From Ilumatobacteraceae bacterium (GTDB lineage: Bacteria > Actinomycetota > Acidimicrobiia > Acidimicrobiales > Ilumatobacteraceae): a stretch of 64,000 nt of DNA. Below are positions 37,347 through 63,734 of this stretch, piece after piece (the stretch's first letter is position 1; the number at the start of each line of letters is the position of its first letter). Made by a program: the position numbers and the translations under genes. The notes below the pieces were generated by a model. The model did no database searches. It was not told the DNA's origin and was given only the letters and a program-made list of their open reading frames with translations. The DNA is taken from the NCBI GenBank assembly GCA_044340485.1, contig JBIITN010000004.1, positions 28,357-92,356 of the forward strand, written 5' to 3'.

Positions 37347-37348
37347 GC

Positions 37349-38410: not shown

Positions 38411-38419
38411 GAGATACCG

Positions 38420-43964: not shown

Positions 43965-44094
43965 ATACAAGTTTTTAGCGCATCCGACGCCCTCGTGGCG
44001 AGCGATTCGATCAATTAGATGAATGAAAAAGACACACCCTGGAGCAATTAGCCTGTGAGGCGACCCCGCCACCACGACTCACCAGAGGTTTTGC

Positions 44095-44559: not shown

Positions 44560-45759
44560 ATGGCTACAGAAGACATTTACATCCTCGGAATCAACATGAC
44601 AAAGTTTGGAAAACATCCAGACAAAGACACCGTTGACCTCGCTGCGCAAGCGGCCCTCGCGGCGCTCAAAGACGGCGGCGTCACAATGAAGGACATGGGC
44701 GTGATGGCGGCTGGTTGTCTATTCGGTGAAGGCAGTGTTGCACAGTCGATTCAAAAACAAATTGGCCAGACCGGAATTCCGGCATATAACGTGTCGAATG
44801 CTTGTGCCACAGGGGCAACTGCTTTACGCACAACGATTATGGCCATTAAAGCTGGCGAGTGCGACATGGGACTAGCCGTAGGAGTTGAAAAACTCGCTGG
44901 CGCTGGACTACTTGGCGCAAAGTCACGCACAGATGGAAAAGTGTTTGAGCCAAAGGGGCGCTTTGGTGCCGTAGTTCCCACCGACGGTCTTATTGGTACC
45001 GACAATATGCCAGGAACCTTCGCCCAGGTTGGCATGGAATATGGACACAAATACGGCGGTGCAACATTTGAGTTGTTCGCCAAGATTGCCGAGAAGAACC
45101 ATGCACACTCCACGCTAAATCCCCTTGCTGCCTACACCAAGCGAATGACGCTTGACGAGATCATGAACGACGTCATGATCGCCTACCCCAATACCCGTTC
45201 CATGTGTTCAGCAAACTGCGACGGTGCAGCCGCTGCGGTAGTGGTGAGCGGCAACAAATTGAAGACCCTCTCGAAGGAACAACAGCGCCGCGCGATCAAG
45301 GTGTCAGCATCGATCTTGACAAGCGATCCATATCAAGAAGCTTGCCAAGTGCTACCAGACGTCAACACCCTTACTCGCATTGCCGCTAAGCAAGCATATG
45401 AACAAGCTGGCGTTGGCCCAGAAGATCTGGACCTAGTAGAGCTACATGACTGCTTCGCAACTGCTGAACTTGTTCACTACGACAACTTGATGTTGTGCGA
45501 AGAAGGTGGTGCAGTCGACTTCTTTAACTCCGGCGCGACATGGCGCGATGGTCGTCTTCCTGTCAATGTCTCTGGTGGCCTTGAATCCAAGGGCCACCCC
45601 ATTGCGGCAACAGGCATCGCCAACATCTGGGAAGTGTGTCATCACCTCCGTGGCGAAGCGGGCGACCGCCAGATTGAAGGAGCAAAGGTCGGTATGGCTC
45701 ATGTCATTGGCCTCGGATCTGCGTGTGGCCTTCATATCTTGGAGAAATCAGCCCTCTAA
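44560..45759 (+). CDS. SCP-x/lipid-transfer-type thiolase family protein
   Basis: NVSNACATGATAL (active-site Cys context), GLESKGHPIAATG, HVIGLGSACG. Confidence 0.88.
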   Translation: MATEDIYILGINMTKFGKHPDKDTVDLAAQAALAALKDGGVTMKDMGVMAAGCLFGEGSVAQSIQKQIGQTGIPAYNVSNACATGATALRTTIMAIKAGECDMGLAVGVEKLAGAGLLGAKSRTDGKVFEPKGRFGAVVPTDGLIGTDNMPGTFAQVGMEYGHKYGGATFELFAKIAEKNHAHSTLNPLAAYTKRMTLDEIMNDVMIAYPNTRSMCSANCDGAAAAVVVSGNKLKTLSKEQQRRAIKVSASILTSDPYQEACQVLPDVNTLTRIAAKQAYEQAGVGPEDLDLVELHDCFATAELVHYDNLMLCEEGGAVDFFNSGATWRDGRLPVNVSGGLESKGHPIAATGIANIWEVCHHLRGEAGDRQIEGAKVGMAHVIGLGSACGLHILEKSAL

Positions 45760-46257: not shown

Positions 46258-46974
46258 CTAGCCACGAGACATGTACGACGCTTCGATCTCGTCGATGCGG
46301 CTTGCTAAATCGGTAGCCGTACCTGAGATCTCGATCACCCCACGACGCATCACGTACGCACGATCTGCATACTTCAATGCTTGGCGAACGTGTTGTTCAA
46401 CCAATACCACTGCAGTTCCACGCTGATCAGCTGCATCGCGCACCGCTTGCAAAAGACGTTGCACCACGATCGGAGCAAGACCCATCGACAATTCATCGGC
46501 CAAGAGCACCGAAGGTTTACGACCTAAGTTTCGAGCGAGACTAAGCATTTGCTGCTCACCACCAGAGAGCGAGCCTCCAGAGACATTGATGCGTTTTTCC
46601 AATTCGGGAAACAGTTGCAATGCTTCATCAATATCGGCGCCGGCCACGCGGAGATTCTCGCGAGTGGTAAGTCCCATGAAAACCGACTTCTCTTCGGTTA
46701 CAAAGGTCAGTCCGTTACGCGCACGCACGTGAAGTGGACCAGTGGCCACTTCACCGCCGATCACCACGTCGCCTTCCATTGGAGATAGTTCCCCCGCCAA
46801 GGTCAACATGGTGGTTGTCTTTCCCGCACCGTTAGGTCCAAGAATTGCCACTACTTCACCGGGGTTGGCTACAAGGTTGATCCCTTTGATTACTGCTTGT
46901 TGGCCACCGTATCCCGATGACAAGTTACGGGCTTCGATTCCCATCGAGCCAACTGCTGTTGCTGTGTCACTCAT
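46258..46974 (-). CDS. livF: branched-chain-amino-acid-type ABC transporter ATP-binding protein (LivF-like)
   Basis: GPNGAGKTT, LSGGEQQML, LLADE. Confidence 0.9.
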   Translation of the reverse strand: MSDTATAVGSMGIEARNLSSGYGGQQAVIKGINLVANPGEVVAILGPNGAGKTTTMLTLAGELSPMEGDVVIGGEVATGPLHVRARNGLTFVTEEKSVFMGLTTRENLRVAGADIDEALQLFPELEKRINVSGGSLSGGEQQMLSLARNLGRKPSVLLADELSMGLAPIVVQRLLQAVRDAADQRGTAVVLVEQHVRQALKYADRAYVMRRGVIEISGTATDLASRIDEIEASYMSRG

Positions 46975-46986
46975 GTGTGTTCCCTA

Positions 46987-49689
46987 CTAGTGGTCCGCGT
47001 GCTCGCCGCCAAGATAGGCAGCAATCACCAACGGGTTGGATTGAATTTCGGCTGGAGTTCCTTCTGCGATCTTGCGACCAAAGTCAAGAACAACAATGTT
47101 GTCGCACACGCTCATCACGAAGTTCATGTCATGCTCGACAAGCAAGATACTCATACCCCACTCATCTGCAAGGCGACGAACCAGAGAAGCGAGTTCTGCA
47201 GTCTCGGCATCACCGAGTCCAGCACCAGGCTCGTCAAGAAGCAACACGTTTGGCTGTGTTGCAACTGCGCGAGCAATGGCAAGGAGTCGACGATTTCCGT
47301 ACGACAAGTCCTCTACTTTTCGCAATAAGTCATCTTCGAGACCAAACTCGTTGATTGCAGCCACCACCGCTCCAGGAAGCGGCGGGTTCACTGGCCAGAA
47401 CAGATCCGTAAAGTACGACTTTTGATCGCGGGGATCAGACGCTGCGCGAAGGTTGTCGAGCACCGACAAGTCTTCGAATAACTCTAGCGACTGGAATGAA
47501 CGAGACATTCCAAGTCGTGCACGCTTCGGTGCGTTCAACTTGGTGACATCCACACCGTCCAAAGTGATTGAGCCAGCTGCTGCACGGGTAAAACCTGTAA
47601 CGGCGTCGATAAATGAGGTCTTTCCAGCACCGTTTGGTCCGATAAGTCCGGTGATTTTCCCGGGTGGAACCTGAAGGGTGACGTCTTCAACAGCGGTTAC
47701 ACCGCCGTAACGAACAGTCAGTCCCTCCACCTTCAATGTTACTGGTGCGACCCGATCGCGAGTTTCTGGTGGAAGCACCACTTTCTCAACGACTACTTCA
47801 GCATTTGGATCCGTCTTCTTCACCAAGCCCTTCAGTTTCGAGCCGACCCACTTCACTTGCATTGCAGACTCTTTAGCAATGCCATCTTGGTTCAGCAACA
47901 CGATCAACACCACGAAGATTCCACCAATGAGCTGCACATATTGCTCAATCCCCGAGAAGATCGAATTCGAAATGCGTGCGCCAATGGAACCTGACGTCAA
48001 CGTGGCACCAAAAATGGGACCCATTAGCCAACCGATACCTCCAAGGAAGGCCCAACCAACCGAAGTGACAGATATGAAGTTGTTGAACTCGGACGAGAAC
48101 AAGATGGTGTCTTTACGGAATGAAATAAGAATTCCACCAAGACCAGCAATGGAGGCGCCAACAGCGAAGGCATACAACTTGGCACCCACAACACTGATTC
48201 CTAATGCTGCAGCTGCGCGCTCGTTAGTACGCACAGCAAGCAGACGTCGACCACTTCGACCTCGACGCATCGCAGCAACTGCTAACGCGGCCAAGATGAA
48301 GCCAACCATGCAGAAGATGGCGTAGCGACTCGGGTTACGAGTTGCTGAAATATCAATTCCAAAAACGCTCGGCTTACCGATCTTTGTACCAATAAAACCA
48401 CCAGTCCACGCGCTGTTGCCAAAGATGATCAACTGAATCGCGCTACCAAGACCGAGGGTCACAATTGCCAAGTTCAGTCCACGTGCTCGCACGGCAGGCA
48501 GAGCAAACAGTGCACCAAGCGGCGCAATAACCATCAATGCAAATGGGATTGATAATAGGAATGGAAAATTCCATACATCAATTGCGCGACCCGCAATGTA
48601 GGCACCAAGACCAGCAAGTGCATACTGACCAAGTGACAACTGCCCCGCATAACCCGTCACAACAACTATTGACAACAGAATTGTGGCCATTGCAAAGGTA
48701 GTGACCATGGAGTCTTGCCACAATGTTGGCAACTGCGTAATCAGAACAAGCGAAATCACTACACCAATTGCCACGTGCAACGGCCGCACACGACCATCAC
48801 CAACAGCTGGTAGTCGGGACAGGAAGTATCCACGGACTGGGAGCGCGGTTCCGCGAAACACCATCACTGCGATAATCACAAGGAAAGGAAATGATTGTGA
48901 AATACCTGGAGTGCTGACGTAGTTCACTAACTCTGTTTGACCAACGCCAATCAGAAGTCCAGCAACAAGGGCCACCGGAAACGAACGGAAACCTGCAACT
49001 AGTGCTGCAGCAAGTGCCGCAAGAACGAGGTTTGTCATTGTGGTCACTTGCAGAGTCACGATCGGCGATACAAGAATCGCAGCAAGACCTGCCAAAGCCG
49101 AACCAATTGCCCAGTTGAGTGTTGCAATTTTGTCGGGGGAAAGACCGATAGCGGCAGCTGCACGTTGGTTCTCTGCTACTCCAGAAGTTGCAAGACCAAA
49201 GTTGGTGAATTTGTAGAACGCCCACAAGACGAACGTCAAAACAGTTGCAATGATCACCAAAATGATGCGATCTAGCGCAATGGTAATGCCACCCACTTCA
49301 TAAAGATTGTCTGGCAACTCAGTTTGAACAAACGTGACGCGTCCGCCGTATCGAATAACGGCAGCGGACTGCAAAATAATTAACACACCAAGCGTTGCAA
49401 CAATTCGAGCTAACGGAGACGCACGACGCAACTGACGCATCACAACCAAGTGTGTGAGTGCACCGATTAACGCTGACAGGGCGACACCAAACAACAATGC
49501 GAGAATGAACGGCCAATTTTGCTTTTCTCGCAATTCCCACGAGAAATACGCGCCAACCATGCCCACTGCACCGTGGCCAAAATTCAATACGCCCGAGCCG
49601 CGATAGATCACCATCAGGCCCTGCGAAGCAAGTGCATACAGAGCACCTACACCTAAGCCCAAAATGGCAAACTTAATGAACTCCTGCAT
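46987..49689 (-). CDS. fused ABC transporter protein: LivH-like permease + LivM-like permease + LivG-like ATPase in one 900-aa polypeptide
   Basis: An N-terminal LivH-like start (MQEFIKFAILGLGVGALYALASQGLMVIYRGSGVLNFGHGA) and a second block of TM helices. The C-terminal ATPase has LKVEGLTVRYGG, GPNGAGKTS, LSYGNRRLL, LLLDEP and an HD motif. The frame is uninterrupted. Confidence 0.88.
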   Translation of the reverse strand: MQEFIKFAILGLGVGALYALASQGLMVIYRGSGVLNFGHGAVGMVGAYFSWELREKQNWPFILALLFGVALSALIGALTHLVVMRQLRRASPLARIVATLGVLIILQSAAVIRYGGRVTFVQTELPDNLYEVGGITIALDRIILVIIATVLTFVLWAFYKFTNFGLATSGVAENQRAAAAIGLSPDKIATLNWAIGSALAGLAAILVSPIVTLQVTTMTNLVLAALAAALVAGFRSFPVALVAGLLIGVGQTELVNYVSTPGISQSFPFLVIIAVMVFRGTALPVRGYFLSRLPAVGDGRVRPLHVAIGVVISLVLITQLPTLWQDSMVTTFAMATILLSIVVVTGYAGQLSLGQYALAGLGAYIAGRAIDVWNFPFLLSIPFALMVIAPLGALFALPAVRARGLNLAIVTLGLGSAIQLIIFGNSAWTGGFIGTKIGKPSVFGIDISATRNPSRYAIFCMVGFILAALAVAAMRRGRSGRRLLAVRTNERAAAALGISVVGAKLYAFAVGASIAGLGGILISFRKDTILFSSEFNNFISVTSVGWAFLGGIGWLMGPIFGATLTSGSIGARISNSIFSGIEQYVQLIGGIFVVLIVLLNQDGIAKESAMQVKWVGSKLKGLVKKTDPNAEVVVEKVVLPPETRDRVAPVTLKVEGLTVRYGGVTAVEDVTLQVPPGKITGLIGPNGAGKTSFIDAVTGFTRAAAGSITLDGVDVTKLNAPKRARLGMSRSFQSLELFEDLSVLDNLRAASDPRDQKSYFTDLFWPVNPPLPGAVVAAINEFGLEDDLLRKVEDLSYGNRRLLAIARAVATQPNVLLLDEPGAGLGDAETAELASLVRRLADEWGMSILLVEHDMNFVMSVCDNIVVLDFGRKIAEGTPAEIQSNPLVIAAYLGGEHADH

Positions 49690-49760
49690 TTTCCCCCCTC
49701 AGATGTGTGGTTCCCCACAAGCCCGCAACTGTTATTGCAGTTATCGAACTGACGCCCTAC

Positions 49761-49776
49761 GGTGACGGCAGTCACA
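49761..49776. promoter_or_regulatory. GGTGA-CGGCAG-TCACA, CRP/FNR-geometry inverted repeat upstream of the fused liv gene
   Basis: Read from the sequence, 72-87 nt upstream of ATG 49689. Confidence 0.5.
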
Positions 49777-49931
49777 ATTTCTTGAGACTACTCCACCGCA
49801 AGGCGTCTGTGAAACGTATCACACCGATAAAAACCCTCACCAACTTAAGACGACGCAACCGCCAAAAATCCTCACACGTGCGCACATTCACAACGCGTAC
49901 AGAAACTGCTCTGGCCCAGAGAATCAATAAG

Positions 49932-49968
49932 AAGAGGGGTTGTACCCGTTACAGGCACAACCCCTCTT
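49932..49968 (-). terminator. 12-bp perfect hairpin AAGAGGGGTTGT-n13-ACAACCCCTCTT
   Basis: Read from the sequence. On the minus strand it is followed by CTTATTGATT. Function (terminator or leader structure) is uncertain. Confidence 0.45.
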
Positions 49969-50074
49969 GCGCCCGGACTTCATTTCACACAGGGTGGCAT
50001 TTCATCCAACTACTCAGAGGCGCACATGGACTTGGTCAAGGACTCCGCACACTGCCCTGATCAGGTCTCGATTT

Positions 50075-50090
50075 CGTGACAGTGGTCACT
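50075..50090. promoter_or_regulatory. CGTGA-CAGTGG-TCACT, orphan CRP/FNR-geometry inverted repeat
   Basis: Read from the sequence. It lies between two hairpins in a 544-bp non-coding gap. Confidence 0.4.
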
Positions 50091-50154
50091 TCACATGGGC
50101 ACAGAGTAACACCCACGCCGCAACCCCCTGCACACGCGATCCACCCGAGATCGC

Positions 50155-50181
50155 AAAAACCCCACACCTTTCGGTGTGGGG
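50155..50181 (-). terminator. rho-independent terminator of binding-protein gene 1
   Basis: Minus strand CCCCACACC-gaaa-GGTGTGGGG followed by TTTTT, 53 nt after the stop at 50234. Confidence 0.8.
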
Positions 50182-50233
50182 TCTTCACTAGCGGCTAAGC
50201 GCTCATAGTTCTTTCGAACGTATCTGACCAGAA

Positions 50234-51523
50234 TCAGTCAGCGTGATATGGCGTCATGTCGTATGTCTTGTCATCCATTGGTGACAACTTGCCACCAGAG
50301 AAGATGTCGTATGCGACTGAGCGGTTGAAGATACGTGGGAATGCTCCACCTTCACCAGTCCATGGTGATGTGAAGTCAAGGTCGCCCACCATGTTGTCCA
50401 TTGGCAGGTTGCTTGTTGCATTCGCAGCATCAATAAACGTGTTGTTGTTGACTTCAAGACCGTCTGCAATCATCTGCTCGACGATCTTGCGGAAGCCTTC
50501 AAAAGCTGCCCATGTTCCAAGACCGGCAAGTGAGTTCCAGTCGAGATCCGGTGCGTCGTACTTCTCAAGTGCTGCACGATAGTCATCCCACATTGGTCCA
50601 GCAATGTTCGGGTATGCGTTGATTGAAACGCCACCTTCTGTTTCTGCTGGGAATGCTTCGCCAACTTTTTCATTCAAGTTGCCCTGTGGACCGTAGAGAC
50701 GCTGAGTGCCACCTACTGCCTTCATTGCAGGAATGAATCCGAGCCACTGAATGTCACCCATGAAACCATGGATGCAGTCTGTGCCGCTTGCTGCCTTGGC
50801 AGCCAAAGCGCTGTAGTCAGAAGTGGTCAATGGGAACGTGAGGTACTTGACTTCGTTGGTGTAACCGAGCTTCTCGAAAGCAGCCTTGGTCTGACCAATG
50901 AAGTAATCCTGTGAACCGTTTTCACCAAATAAGAATGCAGGTGCTTCACAACCGTCTTCCGACATCTTGTACGCAGCACCAGCGTTGAACGAGAACACTG
51001 AACCCATGTTGAATGCGATTGGGCTTGAGAATTCCTTCGCCACAACTGGACAACATGCACCGAACCATGCGGTGTTTGACTCTTCCAACACTTCAATGAG
51101 CAAGCTCACGTCTGTGTCGTAACCGCCAACAAGTGCAATCGCACCAGCCTCAACAGCCTGACGAGCACACGCTGCGTCTTCGTTCGGGTCGGTCTTACCG
51201 TCACAGAATGTCATATCGAGCGGACGTCCGCCGATGCCACCATTGTCATTGATGTATTGCTCATAGATCTCAGCTGCAGCCTCGATGTTTGGATATGACT
51301 GAACTGATGAGTCAACAGTTGACACAACCCACACGACCAATGGATCACCAGTTGGTGCTGGTGCCGCTGAATCTGCAGTGGTGTCGTCGGTGCCGCCATC
51401 TGATGATGAATCATCATCACCACATGCGGCAAGTGTTAATGAACCGACAAGCGCAAGACTTGTCATGACCCGAAGCGTCCGGCGCGAACGCCCAGAGCCC
51501 GAGGTACGCGAAAACATCGACAT
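50234..51523 (-). CDS. ABC transporter substrate-binding lipoprotein, LivK/Peripla_BP_6-like (paralog 1)
   Basis: Start set at MSMFSRTS... by alignment with paralogs (MGMFAR...). Lipobox LTLAAC|GDDDSSS. Collinear with paralogs 2-4. Confidence 0.87.
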   Translation of the reverse strand: MSMFSRTSGSGRSRRTLRVMTSLALVGSLTLAACGDDDSSSDGGTDDTTADSAAPAPTGDPLVVWVVSTVDSSVQSYPNIEAAAEIYEQYINDNGGIGGRPLDMTFCDGKTDPNEDAACARQAVEAGAIALVGGYDTDVSLLIEVLEESNTAWFGACCPVVAKEFSSPIAFNMGSVFSFNAGAAYKMSEDGCEAPAFLFGENGSQDYFIGQTKAAFEKLGYTNEVKYLTFPLTTSDYSALAAKAASGTDCIHGFMGDIQWLGFIPAMKAVGGTQRLYGPQGNLNEKVGEAFPAETEGGVSINAYPNIAGPMWDDYRAALEKYDAPDLDWNSLAGLGTWAAFEGFRKIVEQMIADGLEVNNNTFIDAANATSNLPMDNMVGDLDFTSPWTGEGGAFPRIFNRSVAYDIFSGGKLSPMDDKTYDMTPYHAD

Positions 51524-51606
51524 GCGATGATCCCCCCTGTGTGTTAAGAGCAAGTCCTCCCCGGGACTCACTGATTTTTTGACTTTCGTCGAGTACAGAG
51601 TAGCAG

Positions 51607-51628
51607 TTTGGTGACTGCAGTCACCAAA
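51607..51628. promoter_or_regulatory. perfect 22-bp palindrome TTTGGTGACTGCAGTCACCAAA (core GGTGA-N6-TCACC)
   Basis: Self-complementary on inspection, 84-105 nt upstream of the paralog 1 start. Confidence 0.6.
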
Positions 51629-51686
51629 CGAGGACACAATAATGAATCACAAATTCACTTGCGCTATGCAAATAAATCTGATGACG

Positions 51687-51723
51687 GGTGGCGTGGAACC
51701 CCATTGCGAGGTCCCACACCACC
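51687..51723 (-). terminator. hairpin terminator of binding-protein gene 2
   Basis: 14-bp stem. The two non-Watson-Crick positions are G-U on the minus-strand RNA but C-A on the plus strand, which supports minus-strand function. A T-rich tail follows. Confidence 0.6.
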
Positions 51724-51736
51724 TGTACTCAGGCAG

Positions 51737-53029
51737 TTAGCCGGCGTGATATGGCGTCATGTCGTATGTCTTGTCATCCAATGGCGCCAACTTGCCGCCG
51801 GAGATGATGTCGAATGCAACGGAACGGTTGAAAATGCGTGGGAATGCCCCACCTTCACCATTCCATGGAGCAGTGAAGTCAAGATCGCCCACCATGTTGT
51901 CCATCTGCAAATTGTTTGTGGCACTCGCCGCTTCAATAAATGTGTCGCTGTTGACCTCAGTACCGTCAGCGATCATCTGCTCAACAATCTTGCGGAAACC
52001 TTCAAAGGCTGCCCAAGTACCAAGACCAGCAAGTGAATTCCAGTCAAGATCAGGAGCGTTATAGCGCTCGAGTGCGTCACGGTAGTCATCCCACATCGGA
52101 CCAGCAATGTTCGGGTATGCGTTGATCACAACGCCACCCTCGGTTTCTGCTGGGAACGCTTCGGCTACTTTGCCGTTGAGATTTCCCTGCGGACCATAGA
52201 GTCGCTGCGTGCCGCCCACTGCCTTCATCGCAGGAATGAAACCAAGCCACTGAATGTCACCCATGAAACCGTGAATACAGTCAGTTCCACTAGCTGCCTT
52301 GGCGGCCAAAGCGCTGTAGTCAGAGATCGTCAACGGATATGTGAGGTACTTCACTTCGTTTGTAAAACCGAGTTTCTCGAAAGCAGCCTTAGTTTGGCCA
52401 ATGAAGTAATCCTGCGATCCATTATCGCCGTAGATGAAGGCGGGTGCTTCGCAACCATCTTCAATCATTTTGAACGCTGCACCAGCATTAAACGAAAAAG
52501 TTGCACCCATGTTAAATGCATTTGCACTCGTGAATTCTTTCGCCACACTCGGACAACACGCTCCGAACCAAGCAACATTCTCTGATTCAAGTACTTCAAT
52601 TAACAGACCCACATCAACGTCAAAACCACCGACGAGAGCGATCGCTCCGTCATCGACAGCCTTTCGTGCACATGCAGCATCTTCATTGGGATCGGCCTTA
52701 CCGTCACAGAAAGTGACGTCTAAAGGACGACCACTAATCCCACCCTTATCGTTGATGTATTGCTCATAAATTTCAGCCGCGGCCTCAATGTTTGGATACG
52801 ACGCGATAGATGAATCGACTGTCGTAACAACCCAAACGTTGAGCGCTTCACCAGTGGGTGTCGCACCACCAGTTTCTGCTGTGGTGTCATCTGATGAGTC
52901 ACCGCTACTTGATGAATCATCATCACCACATGCAGCCAGTGCAAGCGCACCAACGAGAGCCAAACTGACTCCCACTCGAATACCGCGTCGCCGACTATTG
53001 GCAGACGAAGTCCGTGCAAACATCCCCAT
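51737..53029 (-). CDS. ABC transporter substrate-binding lipoprotein (paralog 2)
   Basis: 430 aa; lipobox LALAAC|GDDDSSSS. Confidence 0.9.
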   Translation of the reverse strand: MGMFARTSSANSRRRGIRVGVSLALVGALALAACGDDDSSSSGDSSDDTTAETGGATPTGEALNVWVVTTVDSSIASYPNIEAAAEIYEQYINDKGGISGRPLDVTFCDGKADPNEDAACARKAVDDGAIALVGGFDVDVGLLIEVLESENVAWFGACCPSVAKEFTSANAFNMGATFSFNAGAAFKMIEDGCEAPAFIYGDNGSQDYFIGQTKAAFEKLGFTNEVKYLTYPLTISDYSALAAKAASGTDCIHGFMGDIQWLGFIPAMKAVGGTQRLYGPQGNLNGKVAEAFPAETEGGVVINAYPNIAGPMWDDYRDALERYNAPDLDWNSLAGLGTWAAFEGFRKIVEQMIADGTEVNSDTFIEAASATNNLQMDNMVGDLDFTAPWNGEGGAFPRIFNRSVAFDIISGGKLAPLDDKTYDMTPYHAG

Positions 53030-53080
53030 GAGATGCCCCCCTTATTTTAAAACACCAACGATCCCCCGATTGCTGGTGAT

Positions 53081-53099
53081 GTGACGTAGAGGACGTCAC
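53081..53099. promoter_or_regulatory. inverted repeat GTGACGT-agagg-ACGTCAC upstream of paralog 2
   Basis: Read from the sequence, 52-70 nt upstream of ATG 53029. Confidence 0.5.
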
Positions 53100-53140
53100 G
53101 TAATGAAACTTGCCACCTGTGTTGGGCCGCAATGAACGAA

Positions 53141-53172
53141 CATGGGATCCGAGTCGATACCCGGATCCCATG
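53141..53172 (-). terminator. hairpin CATGGGATCCG-n10-CGGATCCCATG after paralog 3
   Basis: 11-bp perfect stem. An identical copy lies at 54624-54655. Confidence 0.6.
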
Positions 53173-53219
53173 TCGTCAGTGAGTTGTCGTGTTTAACAAC
53201 TGGGGAGAATTCTTGCTTT

Positions 53220-54512
53220 CTACTCTGGGTGGTATGCCGTCATGTCGTAGGTCTTGTCATCCATTGGTGACAGCTTTCCGCCAGAGAACACATCAAAGGC
53301 GACTGATCGGTTGAAAATACGTGGGAAAGCCCCACCTTCAGCAGCCCACGGGGTGGTGAAATCAATGTCACCCACCATGGAATCCATTTGAAGGTTGCTT
53401 GTGGCATTTGCAGCCTCAATGAATGTGTCGTTGTTTACTTCAACTCCATCAGCAATCATCTGCTCCACAATCTTACGGAAGCCCTCGAACGCTGCCCATG
53501 TACCAAGACCAGCAAGTGAGTTCCAGTCAAGATCAGGAGCGTTATAGGTCTCAAGAGCTGCACGATAGTCATCCCACATCGGACCTGCGATGTTCGGGTA
53601 TGCGTTGATCACAACGCCACCTTCAGTCTCAGTCGGGAATGCCTCGCCAACCTTTTCATTGAAGTTGCCCTGAACTCCATAGAGTTTTTGTGTGAAGCCC
53701 ACCGATTTCAATGCAGGCACAAACGCCATCCACTGAATGTCACCGAGTGCTCCATAAATGCAGTCTGAACCACTTGTTGCTTTCGCTGCCACGGCACTGA
53801 AATCTGAGATTGTTGCTGGGACGGTAATGAAATCGAGTCCACCGGAGTACTCCAACTGTTCAAACGCGTACTTTGCCTGCGCCACTGAAATGTCCTGGCT
53901 TCCATTTTCTAGGTAGATGATCTTTACATTCTTGCAACCATCTTGTGTCATCTTGTATGCGGCACCTTGGTTAAATGAGAAAGTCGAACCCATGTTGAAT
54001 GCAATCGGGCTCGAAAACTCTTTTGCGACAACCGGACAACATGCACCAAACCATGCAGTATTTTCAGCCTCAAGTACCTCCATCATCAAACTGACGTCGA
54101 GATCGAAACCACCGACAAGAGCAATTGCTCCATCGTCGACTGCTTTACGCGCACAGGCGGCGTCCTCGTTCGGGTCAGTTTTGCCATCACAAAAAGTGAC
54201 TTCAAGCGGACGACCGCCGATGCCGCCTGCATCGTTGATGTACTGCTCATAAATGTCTGCAGCGGCTTCAATGTTTGGATACGACAACAATGACGAATCA
54301 ACTGTTGTGACTACCCACACGTTTAGTGGTTCACCCGTGGGTGCCGCACCGCCAGTTTCTGCAGTGGTGTCATCTGATGAGTCACCGCTACTTGATGAAT
54401 CATCATCACCGCAAGCCGCCAGTGCCAATGCACCAACGAGAGCCAAACTGACTCCTACTCGAATACTGCGCCGCCTCTTTATGGCCGACGACTTCCGTGC
54501 AAACATCCCCAT
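53220..54512 (-). CDS. ABC transporter substrate-binding lipoprotein (paralog 3, divergent central block)
   Basis: 430 aa with the same leader as paralog 2. Its central segment QDGCKNVKIIYLENGSQDISVAQAKYAFEQLEYSGGLDFITVPATISDF differs from paralogs 1 and 2. Confidence 0.9.
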   Translation of the reverse strand: MGMFARKSSAIKRRRSIRVGVSLALVGALALAACGDDDSSSSGDSSDDTTAETGGAAPTGEPLNVWVVTTVDSSLLSYPNIEAAADIYEQYINDAGGIGGRPLEVTFCDGKTDPNEDAACARKAVDDGAIALVGGFDLDVSLMMEVLEAENTAWFGACCPVVAKEFSSPIAFNMGSTFSFNQGAAYKMTQDGCKNVKIIYLENGSQDISVAQAKYAFEQLEYSGGLDFITVPATISDFSAVAAKATSGSDCIYGALGDIQWMAFVPALKSVGFTQKLYGVQGNFNEKVGEAFPTETEGGVVINAYPNIAGPMWDDYRAALETYNAPDLDWNSLAGLGTWAAFEGFRKIVEQMIADGVEVNNDTFIEAANATSNLQMDSMVGDIDFTTPWAAEGGAFPRIFNRSVAFDVFSGGKLSPMDDKTYDMTAYHPE

Positions 54513-54560
54513 GAGATGCCTCCCTTATTTTGAAACACCAACGATCCCCCGATTGCTGGT

Positions 54561-54585
54561 TATGTGACGCAGAGCACGTCACATA
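54561..54585. promoter_or_regulatory. inverted repeat TATGTGACG-cagagca-CGTCACATA upstream of paralog 3
   Basis: Read from the sequence, 49-73 nt upstream of ATG 54512. Confidence 0.5.
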
Positions 54586-54623
54586 ATGAAACATACCACC
54601 AGTGTTGGGCCCCGATGAACGAA

Positions 54624-54655
54624 CATGGGATCCGAGTCGATACCCGGATCCCATG
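54624..54655 (-). terminator. hairpin CATGGGATCCG-n10-CGGATCCCATG after paralog 4
   Basis: Identical copy of 53141-53172. Confidence 0.6.
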
Positions 54656-54702
54656 TCGTCAGTGAGTTGTCGCGTTCAACAACTGGGGAGAATTTTCCAG
54701 AC

Positions 54703-55995
54703 TTACTCGGCGTGATACTGCGTCATGTCGTAAGTCTTGTCATCCATTGGAGTCAACTTGCCACCAGAAATAATGTCAAAAGCAACTGAACGATTGAAGA
54801 TTCGTGGGAAGGCCCCGCCTTCACCAGCCCACGGTGTAGTGAAGTCGAGATCGCCGACCATGGAATCCATTTGAAGGTTGCTTGTGGCATTTGCAGCCTC
54901 AATGAATGTGTCGTTGTTTACTTCAAGTCCATCAGCAATCATTTTCTCGACAATCTTTCGAAATCCCTCGAAGGCTGCCCACGTACCTAAACCAGCAAGC
55001 GAGTTCCAGTCAAGGTCCGGAGCGTTGTACTTCTCAAGAGCCGCGCGATAGTCATCCCACATCGGACCGGCAATGTTCGGGTACGCGTTGATCACAACGC
55101 CACCTTCAGTCTCTGCGGGGAATGCTTCTGCGACTTTGACGTTGAGATTTCCTTGAGGACCGTACAAACGTTGAGTGCCACCGACAGATTTCAAGGCAGG
55201 TATGAATCCCAACCACTGGATGTCGCCCATAAAACCGTGAATGCAATCTGAGCCATCACCTGCTTTTGCAGCGATCGCGCTGTAATCGGATGCGTTGAGT
55301 GGAACCATCACGTACTTTGGCACAGATGGATCTCCCCCGACTGCTTCCCATGCGGCCTGAGTCTGACCTTGGAAATAGTCATAGGTGGAACCTTCACCAA
55401 TAATAAATGCTGGATTTGTGCACCCGTCTTCTTTCATCTTCCATGCTGCTGCAACGTTGAAAGAGAATACTGCGCCCATGTTGAATGCAATTGGGCTTGA
55501 AAACTCTTTTGCGACAACCGGACAACATGCACCGAACCATGCGGTGTTTTCAGATTCCAACACTTCGATAAGCAAGCTCACATCAACATCAAAGCCTCCA
55601 ACTAATGCGATCGCGCCCGCGTCTACTGCTTTACGCGCACACGCTGCGTCTTCATTTGGATCTGCTTTTCCATCGCAAAATGTGACATCTACCGGACGTC
55701 CGCCGATGCCACCTTTGTCGTTGATGTACTGCTCATAAATATCTGCTGCAGCTTCAATGTTTGGATATGAAGAGATCGAAGAATCAACAGTTGAAACAAC
55801 CCAAACAACCAATGGTTCTCCAGTCGGCGCTGGTGCCGCTGAATCTATTGTTGTGTCATCTGTACCGCCGTCAGATGATGAATCATCATCCCCACACGCA
55901 GCAAGTGATAACGCACCCACCAACGCCAGGCTGATGCCCACGCGCAAACCACGTCTCTTCGTGCTTTGCGACGTTGTACCTTTACACATCCTCAT
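54703..55995 (-). CDS. ABC transporter substrate-binding lipoprotein (paralog 4, divergent central block)
   Basis: Start set at MRMCKGTT... by paralog alignment. Lipobox LSLAAC|GDDDSSS. Its central block EDGCTNPAFIIGEGSTYDYFQGQTQAAWEAVGGDPSVPKYVMVPLNASDY is unique. Confidence 0.87.
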   Translation of the reverse strand: MRMCKGTTSQSTKRRGLRVGISLALVGALSLAACGDDDSSSDGGTDDTTIDSAAPAPTGEPLVVWVVSTVDSSISSYPNIEAAADIYEQYINDKGGIGGRPVDVTFCDGKADPNEDAACARKAVDAGAIALVGGFDVDVSLLIEVLESENTAWFGACCPVVAKEFSSPIAFNMGAVFSFNVAAAWKMKEDGCTNPAFIIGEGSTYDYFQGQTQAAWEAVGGDPSVPKYVMVPLNASDYSAIAAKAGDGSDCIHGFMGDIQWLGFIPALKSVGGTQRLYGPQGNLNVKVAEAFPAETEGGVVINAYPNIAGPMWDDYRAALEKYNAPDLDWNSLAGLGTWAAFEGFRKIVEKMIADGLEVNNDTFIEAANATSNLQMDSMVGDLDFTTPWAGEGGAFPRIFNRSVAFDIISGGKLTPMDDKTYDMTQYHAE

Positions 55996-56043
55996 AAGAT
56001 GCCCCCTTGTATTCAGACACCGACGTCCTTTAACCGTTGGTGC

Positions 56044-56059
56044 TGTGACGTTAGTCACG
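56044..56059. promoter_or_regulatory. TGTGA-CGTTAG-TCACG, CRP/FNR-geometry inverted repeat upstream of paralog 4
   Basis: Read from the sequence, 49-64 nt upstream of ATG 55995. Confidence 0.5.
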
Positions 56060-56123: not shown

Positions 56124-57734
56124 TCAGGAGATGGAAAAGCCCTTATAACCCTCAGCGGCCACTTGGTTGCACAGCTCTCGATACGGCCCAACGCCACCAA
56201 GGTATGGCAGGAACACACGTGGCTTACCAGGAACATTGGCACCCATGTACCACGAGTTCGCCAGCGGATACAACGTCATGTTTCCAACTTCGGTGCTGTG
56301 TGCCACCCATTCATCTTGAGCCTGTTGGGTTGCCTCAATGACGTGTTGATCTTTATCACGCATTGCGACGAAGAGATCCGTCAACCAATCAACATGTTGC
56401 TCAATTGACACCATCATGTTCGACAGCACCGATGGACTTTGCGGACCAGTGATGGTGTACATGTTCGGGAAGTTCGCAATAGCAAGTCCTAAATACGTGG
56501 TGGGACCATCTTTCCATTGATCAGACAGTTTGATGCCATGTTTTCCACGGATATCGATTTTCAACAGCGAACCAGTCATTGCATCGAAACCAGTTGCGTA
56601 CACAATGGCATCGAACTCATACTGTTCGTCGGTGGTGTTGATTCCAACTGGCGTGATCTCAGTAATAGGCGTTTTGCGCAAATTAACCAATCGAACATGA
56701 TCAAGATTGAATGTTGCGTAATAGTCAGTATCGACACACGGACGCTTTGTGCCAAGCGGATGATCGTACGGACACAACGCTTCGGCCACCTCTTGATCTT
56801 TGACAATCGTTCGGATCTTGTCGCGAGCGAAATCAGCAACAACGTCATTTGCTTTTTTGTTGATCAGGATGTCTTCAAATGATGCCAGGAATCGAGCAAA
56901 GTCTGCAGTTTCCCAACTGTCTTCAAGAATCTGCTGTTGCGTTTTTTCGTCTACTGAAAACATCGGTATCGGTGTAAAGCTGATTGGGACTCCACCACGT
57001 GATTCTTTCGCACGCTGACGATACTCGCGATACTGAGACTTCACTTCTGTCACTTCTTCACTGGTCAATGCGCGATTACCTGCAGGCACGGAAAAATTCG
57101 GAGTGCGTTGAAACACTGTTAACTGCTTTGCTTGTTTGGCGATGAGCGGTATTGACTGAATAGCTGACGAACCAGTACCAATTACTGCGACACGTTTTCC
57201 TGTGAAGTCCACTCCTTCATGGGGCCATTTTGATGTTTGATATGTAGCGCCTTTATACGTGTCGATGCCAGGAATCTCTGGCAATTTTGGCGTTGACAAA
57301 GTGCCTACAGCCAACACCAAATGCTGTGTGTCAATGACATCACCGCTATCAGTGGTGATGGTCCAATGCGTATTGACTTCATCCCAGATAGCCGACGTGA
57401 TGGCAGTGTTAAATTGCATGTCAGGCCACAGGTTGTAACGATCCGCAACATGATTTGCATATTTTAAGATTTCTGGCTGGGTGGCATACTTTTCCGTCCA
57501 CTCCCACTCTTGCTCCAACTCGGGATCAAAAGAGTACGAATAGTCAAGTGAACGCACATCACAACGTGCACCTGGATAACGATTCCAATACCACGTACCA
57601 CCAACTCCGCTTGCTTTGTCAAAGACTCGGACGTTAAATCCCAGTCCACGTAACCGATGTAACAAGTACATTCCGGCAAAGCCTGCACCGACGACAACAA
57701 TGTCGCGTGTTGATGTCACTGATGAGTCAGCCAT
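56124..57734 (-). CDS. type I Baeyer-Villiger monooxygenase (paralog A)
   Basis: VVGAGFAGM, GGTWYWNRYPGARCD, VIGTGSSAIQ. The fingerprint is YKGATYQTSKWP, with Gln at the canonical His. Confidence 0.9.
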   Translation of the reverse strand: MADSSVTSTRDIVVVGAGFAGMYLLHRLRGLGFNVRVFDKASGVGGTWYWNRYPGARCDVRSLDYSYSFDPELEQEWEWTEKYATQPEILKYANHVADRYNLWPDMQFNTAITSAIWDEVNTHWTITTDSGDVIDTQHLVLAVGTLSTPKLPEIPGIDTYKGATYQTSKWPHEGVDFTGKRVAVIGTGSSAIQSIPLIAKQAKQLTVFQRTPNFSVPAGNRALTSEEVTEVKSQYREYRQRAKESRGGVPISFTPIPMFSVDEKTQQQILEDSWETADFARFLASFEDILINKKANDVVADFARDKIRTIVKDQEVAEALCPYDHPLGTKRPCVDTDYYATFNLDHVRLVNLRKTPITEITPVGINTTDEQYEFDAIVYATGFDAMTGSLLKIDIRGKHGIKLSDQWKDGPTTYLGLAIANFPNMYTITGPQSPSVLSNMMVSIEQHVDWLTDLFVAMRDKDQHVIEATQQAQDEWVAHSTEVGNMTLYPLANSWYMGANVPGKPRVFLPYLGGVGPYRELCNQVAAEGYKGFSIS

Positions 57735-57808: not shown

Positions 57809-59425
57809 TCAGGCGAACACAAAACCTCTGTAATCCTCTGCGGCCACGTTGTCACAAATCTCACGATAGGGACCTACGCCTCCGAGATACGGCAAGAACA
57901 CACGTGGTTTACCAGGAACATTGGCGCCCATGTACCACGAATTTGCTAATGGATATAGTGATGCGTTACCCACATCAGAACTGTGATGGATCCACTCATC
58001 TTGTGCCTGCTGTGTTGCCTCAATCACTGAACGACCCTTGTCGCGCATGGTGACAAACAAATCCGTCAACCAATCAACGTGTTGCTCGATGGACACCATC
58101 ATGTTCGACAGCACTGACGGGCTCTGTGGGCCCGTAATGGTGTACATGTTCGGGAAGTTTGCGATTGCAAGACCCAGATATGTGGTGGGACCATCTTTCC
58201 ACTGGTCTGCGAGATTGGTTCCGTTCCTACCGCGGATGTCAATCTTCAAGATTGAGCCAGTCATCGCATCGAAACCAGTTGCAAAGACAATGGCATCGAA
58301 CTCGAAACTCTCGTCTGTTGTCTTAATGCCAGTGGGCGTGATCTCGGTGAGCGGTGTCTTGCGGAGGTTTACTAAGCGAACATGATCCAAGTTGTAGGTG
58401 GCGTAATAGTCGGTGTCAACACACGGACGTTTCGTACCAATCGGATGGTCGTATGGGCACAATGCTTCAGCAATTTCTGGATCTTGCACGATGGAGCGGA
58501 TCTTATTGCGGAAGAAATCTGCAACAACATCGTTTGCTTTCTTGTCGATAAGAACGTCTTCAAATGACGCGATCATTCTCATGAAGTCAGCCGTATCCCA
58601 TGCATTATTAAGGATCTTTTGCTGCTCGTCTGACGACACGGAAAATGTCGGCACTGGTGTGAAGTCAAATGGGATGCCGTTTGCCGATACCTTCGCACGT
58701 TGCCGATGCTCGCGATAGTTCGACTTCACTTCGGACACCTCTTTGGTTTCCAACTTGCGGTTTCCGGCAGGCCCAGAAAAGTTTGGTGTGCGTTGGAACA
58801 CAGTGAGCTGTTTTGCTTGTTTTGCAATAAGTGGAATCGACTGAATTGCTGATGAACCGGTTCCGATCACAGCAACGCGCTTTCCTGTGAAGTCGACACC
58901 CTCATGCGGCCACAGTGATGTCTGATACTTGGGTCCTTTGAAACTCTCGATACCGGGAATCTCGGGAAGTTTTGGTGTTGACAGAGTTCCAACTGCCAGC
59001 ACGAAATGTTGCGTGTCAATCACGTCGCCTTTGTCAGTTGTGACTGTCCAACGCCCACGCGCATCGTCGAAAATTGCTGAGGTAATTGCCGTTTCAAACT
59101 TCATGTTGGGCCACAAGTTGTAACGCTCTGCAACATGATTTGCGTATCTCAGAATCTCTGGTTGAGTGGCGTACTTCTCTGTCCACTCCCACTCTTGTTC
59201 CAACTCGGGATCGAATGAGTACGAGTAATCAAGTGAGCGCACATCACAACGTGCACCTGGATAACGGTTCCAGTACCACGTACCGCCAACTCCGCTTGCT
59301 TTGTCAAACACCTGAACCTGGAAACCCAAACTACGTAAACGGTGAAGTAGGTACATGCCGGCAAAACCAGCTCCTACGACGACGACATCTTGTGTCGATG
59401 TGACTGCTTTGGTTGACATAACCAA
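57809..59425 (-). CDS. type I Baeyer-Villiger monooxygenase (paralog B)
   Basis: Same motifs as paralog A; the fingerprint is FKGPKYQTSLWP. Confidence 0.9.
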   Translation of the reverse strand: MVMSTKAVTSTQDVVVVGAGFAGMYLLHRLRSLGFQVQVFDKASGVGGTWYWNRYPGARCDVRSLDYSYSFDPELEQEWEWTEKYATQPEILRYANHVAERYNLWPNMKFETAITSAIFDDARGRWTVTTDKGDVIDTQHFVLAVGTLSTPKLPEIPGIESFKGPKYQTSLWPHEGVDFTGKRVAVIGTGSSAIQSIPLIAKQAKQLTVFQRTPNFSGPAGNRKLETKEVSEVKSNYREHRQRAKVSANGIPFDFTPVPTFSVSSDEQQKILNNAWDTADFMRMIASFEDVLIDKKANDVVADFFRNKIRSIVQDPEIAEALCPYDHPIGTKRPCVDTDYYATYNLDHVRLVNLRKTPLTEITPTGIKTTDESFEFDAIVFATGFDAMTGSILKIDIRGRNGTNLADQWKDGPTTYLGLAIANFPNMYTITGPQSPSVLSNMMVSIEQHVDWLTDLFVTMRDKGRSVIEATQQAQDEWIHHSSDVGNASLYPLANSWYMGANVPGKPRVFLPYLGGVGPYREICDNVAAEDYRGFVFA

Positions 59426-59611: not shown

Positions 59612-60562
59612 CTACGGGCGAGGTGGCCACACGTTCACGGAATAGCGCAAATGTCGGCCAGCGTCGTCATAGGCAGCGGTTGCTGATGGAAACACTCCGC
59701 CCATTTGAAAAAACCCGTGAATCTGACCATCAAAACGAGTGAGGTGGACATCTACGCCATGTTCTTTCAATTTGTTGGCATACGCCTCGCCCTCATCGCG
59801 CAAGGGATCGAATTCCGCGGTGTACACAATTGCCGGCGGCAGACCTTTTAAGTCTTTTGCTTGCAACGGACTGGCGTACGGGTTCTTGCCATCTGCTGGG
59901 CTCGCCAAGTAGTGATCCCAGAACCATTCCATCATGTCTTTGGTAAGTAGGTAGTTGTCGCCATTGTCCTTGTAGGAGACGGTGTCGTAGGCGTGATTTG
60001 TCACTGGGTACACAAGCAATTGCAACTGGATATTTGAAAGACCCTCATCACGAGCCTTCAATGCAACAGCAGCAGCAAGATTTCCTCCTGCAGAGTCTCC
60101 ACCCACGGCAAGCTTCATCGGATCAACTTTGACTGATTCTCCATTTTCAGCAAACCATTTAAATACTGCGTAGCAATCGTTGAATGGAGTCGGGAACTTA
60201 TGTTCTGGAGATAAACGATATTCCACATTTGCAACACGACAACCACCGCGCGATGCAATTGCATTACATGCGGGAGACAGACTTGCACGATCGCCTATCA
60301 CCCAACCACCACCGTGGTAATAAATGAGGCAACCTGATACTCCGTAAAGCCCACGAGGCGTAATCAAAGTAACCAGAATTTCTCCACCTTCAACAGGAAT
60401 GGAGATCTCTTGTGTCTCTGCAACTGGTTCAGCTTCTCCAGCTAGAGCTGCGAAACCTTCTGCTGCTTGTCTCGCTTCATTTGGAGCCAACGTGTTCAAC
60501 GGTGGCGCACCCGCTTCTTCCATTTGTTGAAGTAGTCCCGCTGCGATTGGATCTAATGGCAT
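59612..60562 (-). CDS. alpha/beta hydrolase, HSL-family (family IV) esterase (paralog 1)
   Basis: YYHGGGW oxyanion motif, the GDSAGG nucleophile elbow, DPLRDEG, and GQIHGFF. Confidence 0.9.
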   Translation of the reverse strand: MPLDPIAAGLLQQMEEAGAPPLNTLAPNEARQAAEGFAALAGEAEPVAETQEISIPVEGGEILVTLITPRGLYGVSGCLIYYHGGGWVIGDRASLSPACNAIASRGGCRVANVEYRLSPEHKFPTPFNDCYAVFKWFAENGESVKVDPMKLAVGGDSAGGNLAAAVALKARDEGLSNIQLQLLVYPVTNHAYDTVSYKDNGDNYLLTKDMMEWFWDHYLASPADGKNPYASPLQAKDLKGLPPAIVYTAEFDPLRDEGEAYANKLKEHGVDVHLTRFDGQIHGFFQMGGVFPSATAAYDDAGRHLRYSVNVWPPRP

Positions 60563-63626: not shown

Positions 63627-63734
63627 TGATCTACCCCCCAGATAGATAAGCCTGCTCCCTACAGTGGTCACAGGTTGTTGGTTTGAACCGTAGCAATTTT
63701 GCTTGTACTGGTCAAACGGAAGCGTCAGAAATAT

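Follow-up and report, generated by a model that had tools for sequence, protein, structure and literature searches.

How can four neighbouring genes each resemble a different neighbour, depending on which part of them is compared? The question is raised by a tandem array of genes for solute-binding proteins (SBPs), here called p1 to p4, in a stretch of 64,000 nucleotides (nt) from an Ilumatobacteraceae bacterium (assembly GCA_044340485.1, contig JBIITN010000004.1), referred to below as the window. An earlier reading of this DNA (the original prediction) took the four genes for copies subject to gene conversion, with a hypervariable block at their centre. The overall best explanation, to which we assign a probability of about 0.72, is a different one: ancient SBP paralogues serve one importer, are distinguished by the type of their second lobe (lobe II), and have become mosaic by recombination between misaligned repeat units.

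The steps of this explanation can be set out as follows. p1-p4 would be SBPs of the LivJ-like type I fold (HAAT family), all of them most likely feeding the single LivHMG/LivF importer that is encoded downstream, and the importer would in turn belong to a catabolic island of Baeyer-Villiger monooxygenases, hormone-sensitive-lipase-type esterases and a thiolase-like protein. Each SBP gene would have its own terminator and its own operator-like palindrome. Specificity would probably be set mainly by lobe II, which corresponds to the central block, along with a few cleft residues of lobe I, while purifying selection would keep lobe I and the C-terminal third near-constant, plausibly in the service of folding and of docking to the common permease. 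Since the lobe-II types vary while the rest is held constant for one permease, the array would widen the substrate range of a single transporter, the substrates probably not being alpha-amino acids. The mosaic itself would stem from homologous recombination between misaligned 1483-nt repeat units, the events being a conversion tract of ~640 nt across a gene junction, a short linker tract between p1 and p4, and older exchanges in lobe I. The same homology arms would permit unequal crossing-over and allelic replacement, and hence co-occurring strains with three or four genes, with differing sets of types, and with chimeras.

Four binding proteins and one permease

The array consists of four collinear open reading frames (ORFs), arranged head to tail on the minus strand. 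p4 (54703-55995, 430 amino acids, aa) is transcribed first and is followed by p3 (53220-54512, 430 aa), p2 (51737-53029, 430 aa) and p1 (50234-51523, 429 aa), such that the start-to-start distances along the array are 1483, 1483 and 1506 nt. The end of the array had been placed at 56058, where a longer ORF begins with a GTG further upstream; the ATG of p4 that is linked to a ribosome-binding site lies at 55995, and the boundary is moved to this position. In all four products the folded part is preceded by a basic N-region and a hydrophobic core, then by an L-A-A-C lipobox and an acidic linker rich in Ser and Thr, commensurate with lipoproteins, and all four are matched by Pfam PF13458 (Peripla_BP_6) at 83.8-102.1 bits, the gathering cut-off being 31.7 bits (E = 5.8e-25 for p4, 1.6e-25 for p3, 6.6e-29 for p2 and 2.5e-23 for p1). 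Compared pairwise, the proteins are 76-83% identical and their genes 72-77%. Among genomes, the nearest is a metagenome-assembled genome of an Ilumatobacteraceae bacterium (class Acidimicrobiia) from Lake Mendota, with 97% identity to p1. The signal peptides hold Arg-Arg motifs (for example SRRRGIRV and SRRTLRV), which look twin-arginine-like.

Only one permease is encoded in the locus, in the form of a fused LivH-LivM-LivG polypeptide of 900 aa downstream of p1 (46987-49689, minus strand; two stretches of PF02653 (BPD_transp_2) together with PF00005 and PF12399). A LivF-like second ATPase is encoded at 46258-46974 on the same strand (PF00005). Several SBP genes beside a single permease set are the layout common to all related loci. 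In each of the related loci that were examined (L001, L004 and L008), LivHMG is likewise fused, at 900-903 aa.

Mosaic similarity among the copies

It had been claimed that the similarity of these lipoproteins depends on the segment, such that p1 pairs with p4 and p2 with p3 in the leader and linker, p1 with p2 in the central block, and all four are almost alike in the C-terminal third. The protein alignment reproduces every one of these patterns. At the nucleotide level, the pairing of p1 with p4 is upheld for the linker (~nt 76-175) and is lost in the signal peptide, the identity of the two genes being 0.42-0.50 over nt 1-90. Sites that are informative about the grouping of the four genes into pairs behave in the same segment-wise manner. 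Within nt 1-200, the grouping p1 + p4 with p2 + p3 is favoured by 24 sites, against four for p1 + p3 with p2 + p4 and one for p1 + p2 with p3 + p4; within nt 546-845 the last of these groupings has 19 sites, against five for p1 + p3 and seven for p1 + p4. The short segment nt 846-870 contains six sites, all of them for p1 + p3 and bunched at nt 849-869, and nt 1021-1175 returns to p1 + p2 (13 sites, against one for p1 + p3 and none for p1 + p4). In a permutation test of the incompatibility of neighbouring sites, similar to the pairwise homoplasy index (PHI), the observed value was 0.533 as compared with 0.643 +/- 0.012, p = 1e-4.

Identical tracts point in the same direction. The 70-nt run that had been reported between p3 and p4 (53374-53443 and 54857-54926) is indeed an exact match; it is the longest identical run of this pair and spans 21 consecutive polymorphic sites (permutation p = 2e-4). 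p2 and p3 share an identical run of 47 nt at nt 103-149 (permutation p = 2e-4). The proposal of recombination among the copies is thus borne out by the incongruent segments, by these significant tracts and by intergenic spacers that are 89.5% identical. In other words, p1-p4 display both incongruent segments and tracts which are less diverged than their surroundings, the combination by which gene conversion is recognised.

A probable conversion tract across the gene junctions

The junctions between genes were compared by aligning nt 900 of one gene through nt 400 of the next. The p4-p3 junction tract (54323-54956, minus strand) runs from nt ~1040 of p4 to its stop codon, across a spacer of 190 nt and into nt 1 to ~190 of p3, and contains the 70-nt run at 54857-54926; the p3-p2 tract (52840-53473, minus strand) runs in the same manner from nt ~1040 of p3 to its stop and across a 190-nt spacer to nt ~190 of p2, and contains the run at 53374-53443. 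The two tracts are ~90% identical, with a sliding identity of 0.85-1.00 against 0.65-0.80 in their flanks. Their spacers match at 170 of 190 positions in an ungapped alignment, whereas either is ~48% identical to the spacer between p2 and p1. Because this similarity extends from the 3' coding sequence of the upstream gene through the spacer into the leader of the downstream gene, the pairing of p2 with p3 in the leader and the 70-nt run of p3 and p4 appear to be the two ends of a single junction-spanning tract of ~640 nt. A misalignment of the repeats by one unit, with a heteroduplex across the junction, would be expected to leave such a tract.

The second tract is shorter. The linker of p4 is of the p1 type at 55821-55920 (minus strand; nt ~76-175), its partner in p1 being 51349-51448, and its nearest sequences are p1 itself and the orthologue of p1 in the sister species, L004_g3 (0.84). 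From nt ~200 onwards, p4 is nearest to its own orthologue in that species, L004_g1. In p3, only the first ~170 nt are nearest to p2, and from nt ~200 onwards the L004 orthologue is again the nearest. A copy is closer to a neighbour within the genome than to its sister orthologue only in the 5' ~170 nt of p3 and p2 with the adjoining spacer, and in the linker of p4; orthology is followed by lobe I and the central block, and by most of the 3' part as well. Clear conversion is restricted to the ends of the genes, and the idea of exchange among the copies holds for these tracts and not for a pervasive or recent exchange, the proportion of synonymous differences (pS) being 0.5-0.9 almost everywhere else.

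Age of the copies and the central block

Synonymous and nonsynonymous differences were counted by the method of Nei and Gojobori. In nearly all segments and pairs of p1-p4, pS is near saturation, and it is lowered only in the leader and linker of p2 and p3 (0.27), in aa 346-392 of p3 and p4 (0.38) and in aa 393-431 of p1 and p2 (0.38). The four genes are thus ancient paralogues. The C-terminal third, described before as almost invariant, is so as a protein, with a proportion of nonsynonymous differences (pN) of 0.04-0.12, and is not so at synonymous sites, where dS is 0.5-2 and dN/dS 0.03-0.12. The same is true of the central block that p1 and p2 have in common: its pN is 0.03, as compared with 0.23-0.37 in the other pairs, at a pS of 0.64 and a dN/dS of 0.02. 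Since synonymous sites are near saturation in both regions, their similarity has been kept by purifying selection on old paralogues rather than by recent homogenisation.

What, then, is the central block? It is encoded at 55138-55440 in p4 (aa 186-286), 53655-53954 in p3 (aa 187-286), 52172-52471 in p2 (aa 187-286) and 50669-50968 in p1 (aa 186-285), all on the minus strand, and lies inside lobe II. A profile search returned 405 relatives, the close ones of which sort into recurring central-block types. Type C comprises p4 and its orthologues L004_g1, L012_g1 and L031, with L032, P0016 and P0017; type B comprises p3 and its orthologues L004_g2, L012_g2 and L007_g2, with L007_g1, L001_g1, L033, P0010, P0012 and P0019. 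Type A1 is made up of p1 and its orthologues (L004_g3, L011_g2 and L012_g3), type A2 of p2 and its orthologues (L001_g2, L011_g1 and P0004), and type D, found outside the window, of L011_g3 and P0020-P0022. Trees of separate segments show lobe I, the central block and the last 84 residues to cluster by type across genomes, while the leader and linker alone cluster by genome or by neighbour. In these trees, p2 is p1-like in lobe II and nearer to types C and B in lobe I.

The claim of a hypervariable, diversifying block is not sustained by these comparisons. Each type has orthologues elsewhere, and between orthologues pN in the block is 0.088 for type C, 0.13 for type B and 0.023 for type A1, or 0.02-0.13 within types overall, at a pS of 0.35-0.93. 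The block is therefore type-defining and conserved. dN/dS between the types was not computable, because many comparisons have a pS above 0.75; such saturation may be compatible with positive selection between block types long ago. Exchange can extend into the block: the type D gene L011_g3 matches the A1 gene next to it at 93-96% over nt ~592-680, against a background of 60-80%.

Variation between strains

The layout of the locus, with monooxygenases, esterases, SBP array and fused permease, is constant among relatives, and it is the array that varies. Its order in the window is C-B-A2-A1, and the same order is found in L021. C-B-A1 is the order in L004, L005, L012, L031 and L032, B-A1 in L033, A2-A1-D in L011, B*-A2-A1 in L001 and B'-B-... 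in L007, while L008, L013 and L014 have arrays of three genes of more distant types.

A scan of metagenome contigs returned six loci, three of which were useful. L001 is identical to the window (1.00 in each 250-nt interval) over ~8 kb upstream and 9.7 kb downstream, and its identity falls to 0.76-0.83 at 55.9-53.2 kb. Here, a single chimeric gene (protein P0007) stands in place of p4 and p3: it consists of p4 at nt 1-120, of p3 at nt ~121-520 and of a divergent B allele (66-83% identity) to nt ~1260, and the same protein sequence was assembled in three samples. A second chimera, L007_g1, has the 5' end of p4 to nt ~180, a divergent B-like core to nt ~900 and a p3/p4-like 3' part; it comes from a single assembly and is less secure. 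The breakpoints at nt ~120, ~180, ~530 and ~900 are near the start of the fold and two predicted hinges, although the cases are few. In other words, gene content differs at a fixed position between strains that are otherwise near-identical, which is the mark of a flexible genomic islet in which paralogues are replaced. It is this population-level reshuffling of an array of old types that is the most informative feature of the locus.

That the array of the window might be an artefact of assembly can be set aside, since L021, from another sample, contains the same four-gene array at 99.9% identity over 8 kb, the exact p4 protein is present on 13 contigs, and P0007 recurs in three samples. As a minor point, L012 (CAYVAV010000017.1) is labelled 'uncultured Bifidobacterium sp.'; the bin or the label is probably wrong, because the contig shares synteny with the Ilumatobacteraceae locus, at 80-87% identity.

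Structure and ligand cleft

An AlphaFold2 model of p1 has a mean predicted local distance difference test score (pLDDT) of 88.4 and a predicted template-modelling score (pTM) of 0.84, with residues 1-50 disordered, as would be expected of a signal peptide and tether. Foldseek searches with this model returned LivJ-like SBPs only, at 12-19% identity; among them are 4n03 (the best, E = 7.5e-18), 3hut, 3lop, 4evq, 4n0q and 1z15, with E values of 1e-15 to 1e-18. 4n03 was named by its depositors as the SBP of a fatty acid ABC (ATP-binding cassette) transporter of Thermomonospora curvata, and binders of aromatic acids, leucine and urea come next. The model thus supports for p1 the two-lobed alpha/beta fold with three crossovers that is seen in solved LivJ-like proteins. 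A sequence search of the PDB gave remote matches only (best E = 5e-6), and no close ligand-bound template.

Against E. coli LivJ, p1 was aligned by hhalign with a probability of 92.9%. Domain 2 of LivJ (residues 121-248) falls on p1 residues ~176-302, that is, on lobe II, most of which is made up by the central block (181-283). The residues of LivJ that contact its ligand are Tyr150, Tyr202 and Glu226 in lobe II, with Ser79, Thr102, Ala100 and Ala101. The equivalents of the first three lie inside the block, at 204-207 for Tyr150, at 254-256 for Tyr202 and at Gln280 for Glu226. Moreover, 24 of the 28 type-discriminating positions, which are conserved within and differ between types, are in residues 181-270, mostly in loops after beta-strands. 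The suggestion that the variable block is on the side of the ligand cleft is therefore supported by its place in lobe II, by the contact equivalents it would hold and by the concentration of discriminating positions. Contact equivalents in lobe I also vary among the copies (residues 74-75, Tyr/Phe135 and Thr/Val/Leu137), and because they differ between p1 and p2, these two proteins would have a common lobe II with a different lobe-I cleft.

What might these proteins bind? The clamp that holds the amino acid in LivJ is not kept, the aligned residues being Thr/Val/Leu137 (for Ser79), Pro159-Val161, Gly256 (for Tyr202) and Gln280 (for Glu226). A scan of p1, p3 and p4 against NCBIfam matched no model, so that no finer functional name can be given. 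The candidate identity as equivalogs of the branched-chain amino-acid binders LivJ/LivK is not supported on these two grounds. The loss of the clamp and the lack of an equivalog, taken with the closest structural match and with the catabolic setting, suggest that the substrates would not be amino acids but compounds of the carboxylic, keto or ester kind.

Five cysteines (C107, C119, C157, C158 and C192, in p1 numbering) are invariant in 102 homologues, and C250 is at least 90% conserved. C157 and C158 are a vicinal pair, part of the invariant motif F-G-A-C-C-P, whose counterparts in the LivJ alignment are Ala100 and Ala101. The conserved cysteines may point to disulfides or to an unusual feature of the cleft.

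Weighing of the explanations

Several points tell against the explanation in terms of ancient paralogues and misaligned units, or at least narrow it. The proximity of the block to the cleft rests on a profile alignment to LivJ and on the contact residues of that protein, not on measured distances. We infer, moreover, both the sharing of the permease and the differences in specificity, and likewise the nature of the ligands and the role of the palindromes described below. Within the junction tract, identity drops to 0.70-0.75 over the last ~90 nt of coding sequence, and because of this dip the tract may go back to two events, or to a single one with patchy repair. Of the folded parts of the protein, lobe II is the least conserved in the family (identity 0.56 against 0.66-0.69 in 79 distant homologues), and since it evolves fastest family-wide, part of the contrast between block and flanks is ordinary rate heterogeneity. 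Saturated synonymous sites bar the dating of older exchanges and tests for positive selection after duplication. Finally, the related arrays were assembled from short metagenome reads, a procedure that can create chimeras in repeats, and independent replicate assemblies exist only for the array of the window and for P0007.

The model of the original prediction, in which ongoing conversion homogenises the copies, especially in the C-terminal third, and diversifying selection keeps a ligand-contacting block hypervariable, does account for the existence of recombination tracts, for the higher pN of the central block between types (0.23-0.37, against 0.04-0.14 elsewhere), for the cleft loops inside the block, and for a pS in the C-terminal third (0.4-0.7) somewhat below that of lobe I (0.6-0.9). 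We nevertheless consider it improbable: a C-terminal third with a dS of 0.5-2 has not been homogenised, the block is conserved within each type across genomes (pN far below pS) and between p1 and p2, the types cluster across rather than within genomes, and lobe II is the least conserved domain of the family in any case. There is a similarly small chance that unequal crossover, during the growth of a three-gene array, joined the 5' end of p2 to the 3' end of p4 and so gave rise to p3 as a hybrid, the core of which was later replaced by a foreign B cassette through homologous recombination, such that the mosaic is mainly due to duplication and replacement rather than conversion. A crossover of the duplication type predicts a downstream 5' end, an upstream 3' end and two identical spacers, which is the pattern observed, and replacement of the core by divergent B alleles in an otherwise identical background is seen directly in L001 and L007. 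However, type B lies between C and A1 in sister species too (L004, L012, L031 and L032), so its position is old; p3 is nearest to that sister B orthologue from nt ~200 onwards; and two events would be needed where one conversion tract suffices. The simple version of this origin, by unequal crossover without replacement, is excluded, as p3 and the B gene of the sister species are orthologous in their core.

That there was no recombination at all, and that the mosaic is noise from saturation, unequal domain rates, codon bias or chimeric metagenome assembly, is hardly credible and already contradicted by the data. Synonymous sites are indeed saturated, the rates of the domains do differ, and many contigs break inside the array; yet none of this squares with exact runs of 70 and 47 nt, with two non-coding spacers that are 89.5% identical when the third is at ~48%, with the permutation result, or with the independent re-assembly of the array and of P0007. 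A more far-reaching proposal concerns populations. Lobe-sized pieces of five old SBP types would be reshuffled within the array and between co-occurring strains, giving new combinations of lobe I and lobe II, and with them new uptake specificities for one fixed permease, which would be maintained by niche partitioning or by frequency-dependent selection. Recombination would use conserved arms in the linker-coding stretch, at the hinges, in the invariant C-terminal third and in the spacer with its terminator and operator, and the position of breakpoints near domain borders would reflect the survival of those recombinants that break there. Such a cassette system is conceivable, although we think it unlikely.

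Relation to known systems

In E. coli LivJ/LivK and Salmonella HisJ/ArgT, paralogous binding proteins feed one ABC permease, as is proposed here for p1-p4. The likeness to LivJ/LivK is one of family and fold (PF13458; Foldseek matches 1z15, 2liv, 2lbp and 1usg) and of arrangement, with several SBPs beside one LivHMGF-type importer, and extends to divergence, LivJ and LivK being ~80% identical. The differences are that the genes number four here and form a strict tandem of 1483-nt units; that they encode lipoproteins of a monoderm bacterium; that LivH, LivM and LivG are in one polypeptide; that the amino-acid clamp is lost (Glu226 to Gln, Tyr202 to Gly, Ser79 to Thr/Val/Leu); and that the context is ketone and ester catabolism, not amino-acid uptake.

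The best structural matches, 4n03 and the aromatic-acid SBPs of Rhodopseudomonas palustris (4evq, 4evs and 4eyq), with template-modelling (TM) scores of 0.66-0.75, have the same fold and bind carboxylic rather than amino acids, and therefore fit with the lost clamp and the catabolic context; their sequence identity to p1 is, however, only 12-19%, and their ligand names are the depositors' own.

Two systems resemble the array in other respects. In Borrelia burgdorferi, the oligopeptide-binding proteins OppA1-3 are encoded in tandem upstream of oppBCDF, and their structural variation and separate regulation are proposed to broaden or to time substrate uptake (PMC7822543). The likeness lies in tandem SBP paralogues upstream of one permease. 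The OppA proteins are of another SBP family (cluster C peptide binders), in a host-associated spirochaete. Their genes are not known to have a conversion tract across a junction, or to exchange cores between strains. In natural populations of SAR11, variable regions at conserved positions exchange one or two genes by homologous recombination, and the variants, among them transporter binding proteins, are divergent but functionally equivalent (PMC11796062). There, too, paralogous transporter genes vary at a fixed position through homologous recombination; the present case differs in that it is one of freshwater Acidimicrobiia, in that the variation is inside a tandem array and below the level of the gene, down to lobe-sized pieces, and in that the transporter is an ABC transporter of the HAAT family rather than a TRAP/TTT system. 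A search of the literature for this locus and for SBP arrays linked to Baeyer-Villiger monooxygenases in Acidimicrobiia gave analogues only, as did one for gene conversion in tandem SBP genes. The array is a clear case of a known way in which bacteria vary uptake, and not a new mechanism.

Such a locus amounts to a natural experiment, in which one permease is combined with four or five old lobe-II types, on the domain-wise evolution of SBP specificity. p1 and p2, with lobe II in common and a different lobe-I cleft, and natural chimeras such as P0007 and P0018 would offer handles on whether lobe II sets specificity. The ligands, moreover, would bear on what the Baeyer-Villiger/esterase island imports in an abundant group of freshwater actinobacteria, and so on the turnover of ketone and ester dissolved organic matter. 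The label 'branched-chain amino acid' on proteins of this kind is a family label only. For strain-resolved metagenomics the locus is a hotspot, in which otherwise identical strains differ and assemblies tend to break.

Regulatory signals and spacers

A palindrome of the form GTGAC-N4-GTCAC or GTGACG-N7-CGTCAC precedes each SBP gene, and the permease gene as well, at a distance of 50-100 nt. The copy before p4, GTGACGTTAGTCAC (56045-56058), stands 50-63 nt upstream of its start, is operator-like and is conserved in related loci; p3 and p2 are preceded by the form GTGACG-N7-CGTCAC (54564-54582 and 53081-53099, respectively), p1 by GTGACTGCAGTCAC (51611-51624), and the permease gene by a copy at 49762-49775, with a second one at 50076-50089 in the same 544-nt spacer. 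There are six such sites in total, all within 49.7-56.1 kb, and the N4 form occurs four times against an expectation of 0.09. The palindrome is in the same relative place in the related arrays examined, distant ones included (L004, L008, L011, L013 and L014), and is probably the operator of one regulator. No candidate for this regulator was found in the window, and a Pfam scan of 30.7-44.1 kb detected none either.

Each SBP gene is followed by a strong hairpin, with a T-run only in the hairpin after p1. The hairpins at 54618-54660 and 53135-53177, just past the stop codons of p4 and p3, are near-identical, have stems of 14-19 bp and are without a T-run; they probably act as terminators or stabilise the RNA, and would have been copied as part of the junction tract. 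In a scan of 49.6-56.2 kb, counts of sigma-70 promoters and intrinsic terminators were not above shuffled expectation. From the arrangement of hairpins and palindromes, the SBP genes are probably separate transcription units under one regulator.

The spacer between p1 and the permease gene (49690-50233, 544 nt) holds an intrinsic terminator right after p1, CCCCACACC-GAAA-GGTGTGGGG-TTTTT at ~50154-50187, a 17-bp hairpin at 49932-49968 and the two palindromes given above. In L011, an extra D-type SBP gene is located between the p1 orthologue and this spacer.

Neighbouring genes

Upstream of the array are three paralogues of Baeyer-Villiger-type flavin monooxygenases (56124-57734, 57809-59425 and 62016-63671, minus strand), in tandem or close together and ~75-79% identical in DNA, and two Abhydrolase_3 esterase paralogues (59612-60562 and 60828-61760, minus strand); the one esterase that was scanned is matched by the hormone-sensitive-lipase family model of NCBIfam. 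A fourth monooxygenase, with an N-terminal extension of ~170 aa, is encoded downstream of the array (42039-44075, minus strand). The island of monooxygenases and esterases is thus itself full of old paralogues, and its layout is conserved along with the SBP array.

Also downstream of the array, on the plus strand, an OB-fold protein (DUF35/BbsA-like, 44095-44490) is paired with a thiolase-like lipid-transfer protein (44560-45759). The pair is kept beside the transporter in L001 and L004, and this conservation suggests that coenzyme A (CoA)-dependent cleavage steps would be part of the same pathway. Further away, and unrelated to the SBP array, an operon-like run at 35083-42035 (plus strand) encodes an M20 peptidase, a CN-hydrolase, an amidohydrolase and a molybdenum hydroxylase of three subunits (FAD, 2Fe-2S and MoCo), which may be a pathway for the degradation of N-heterocycles.

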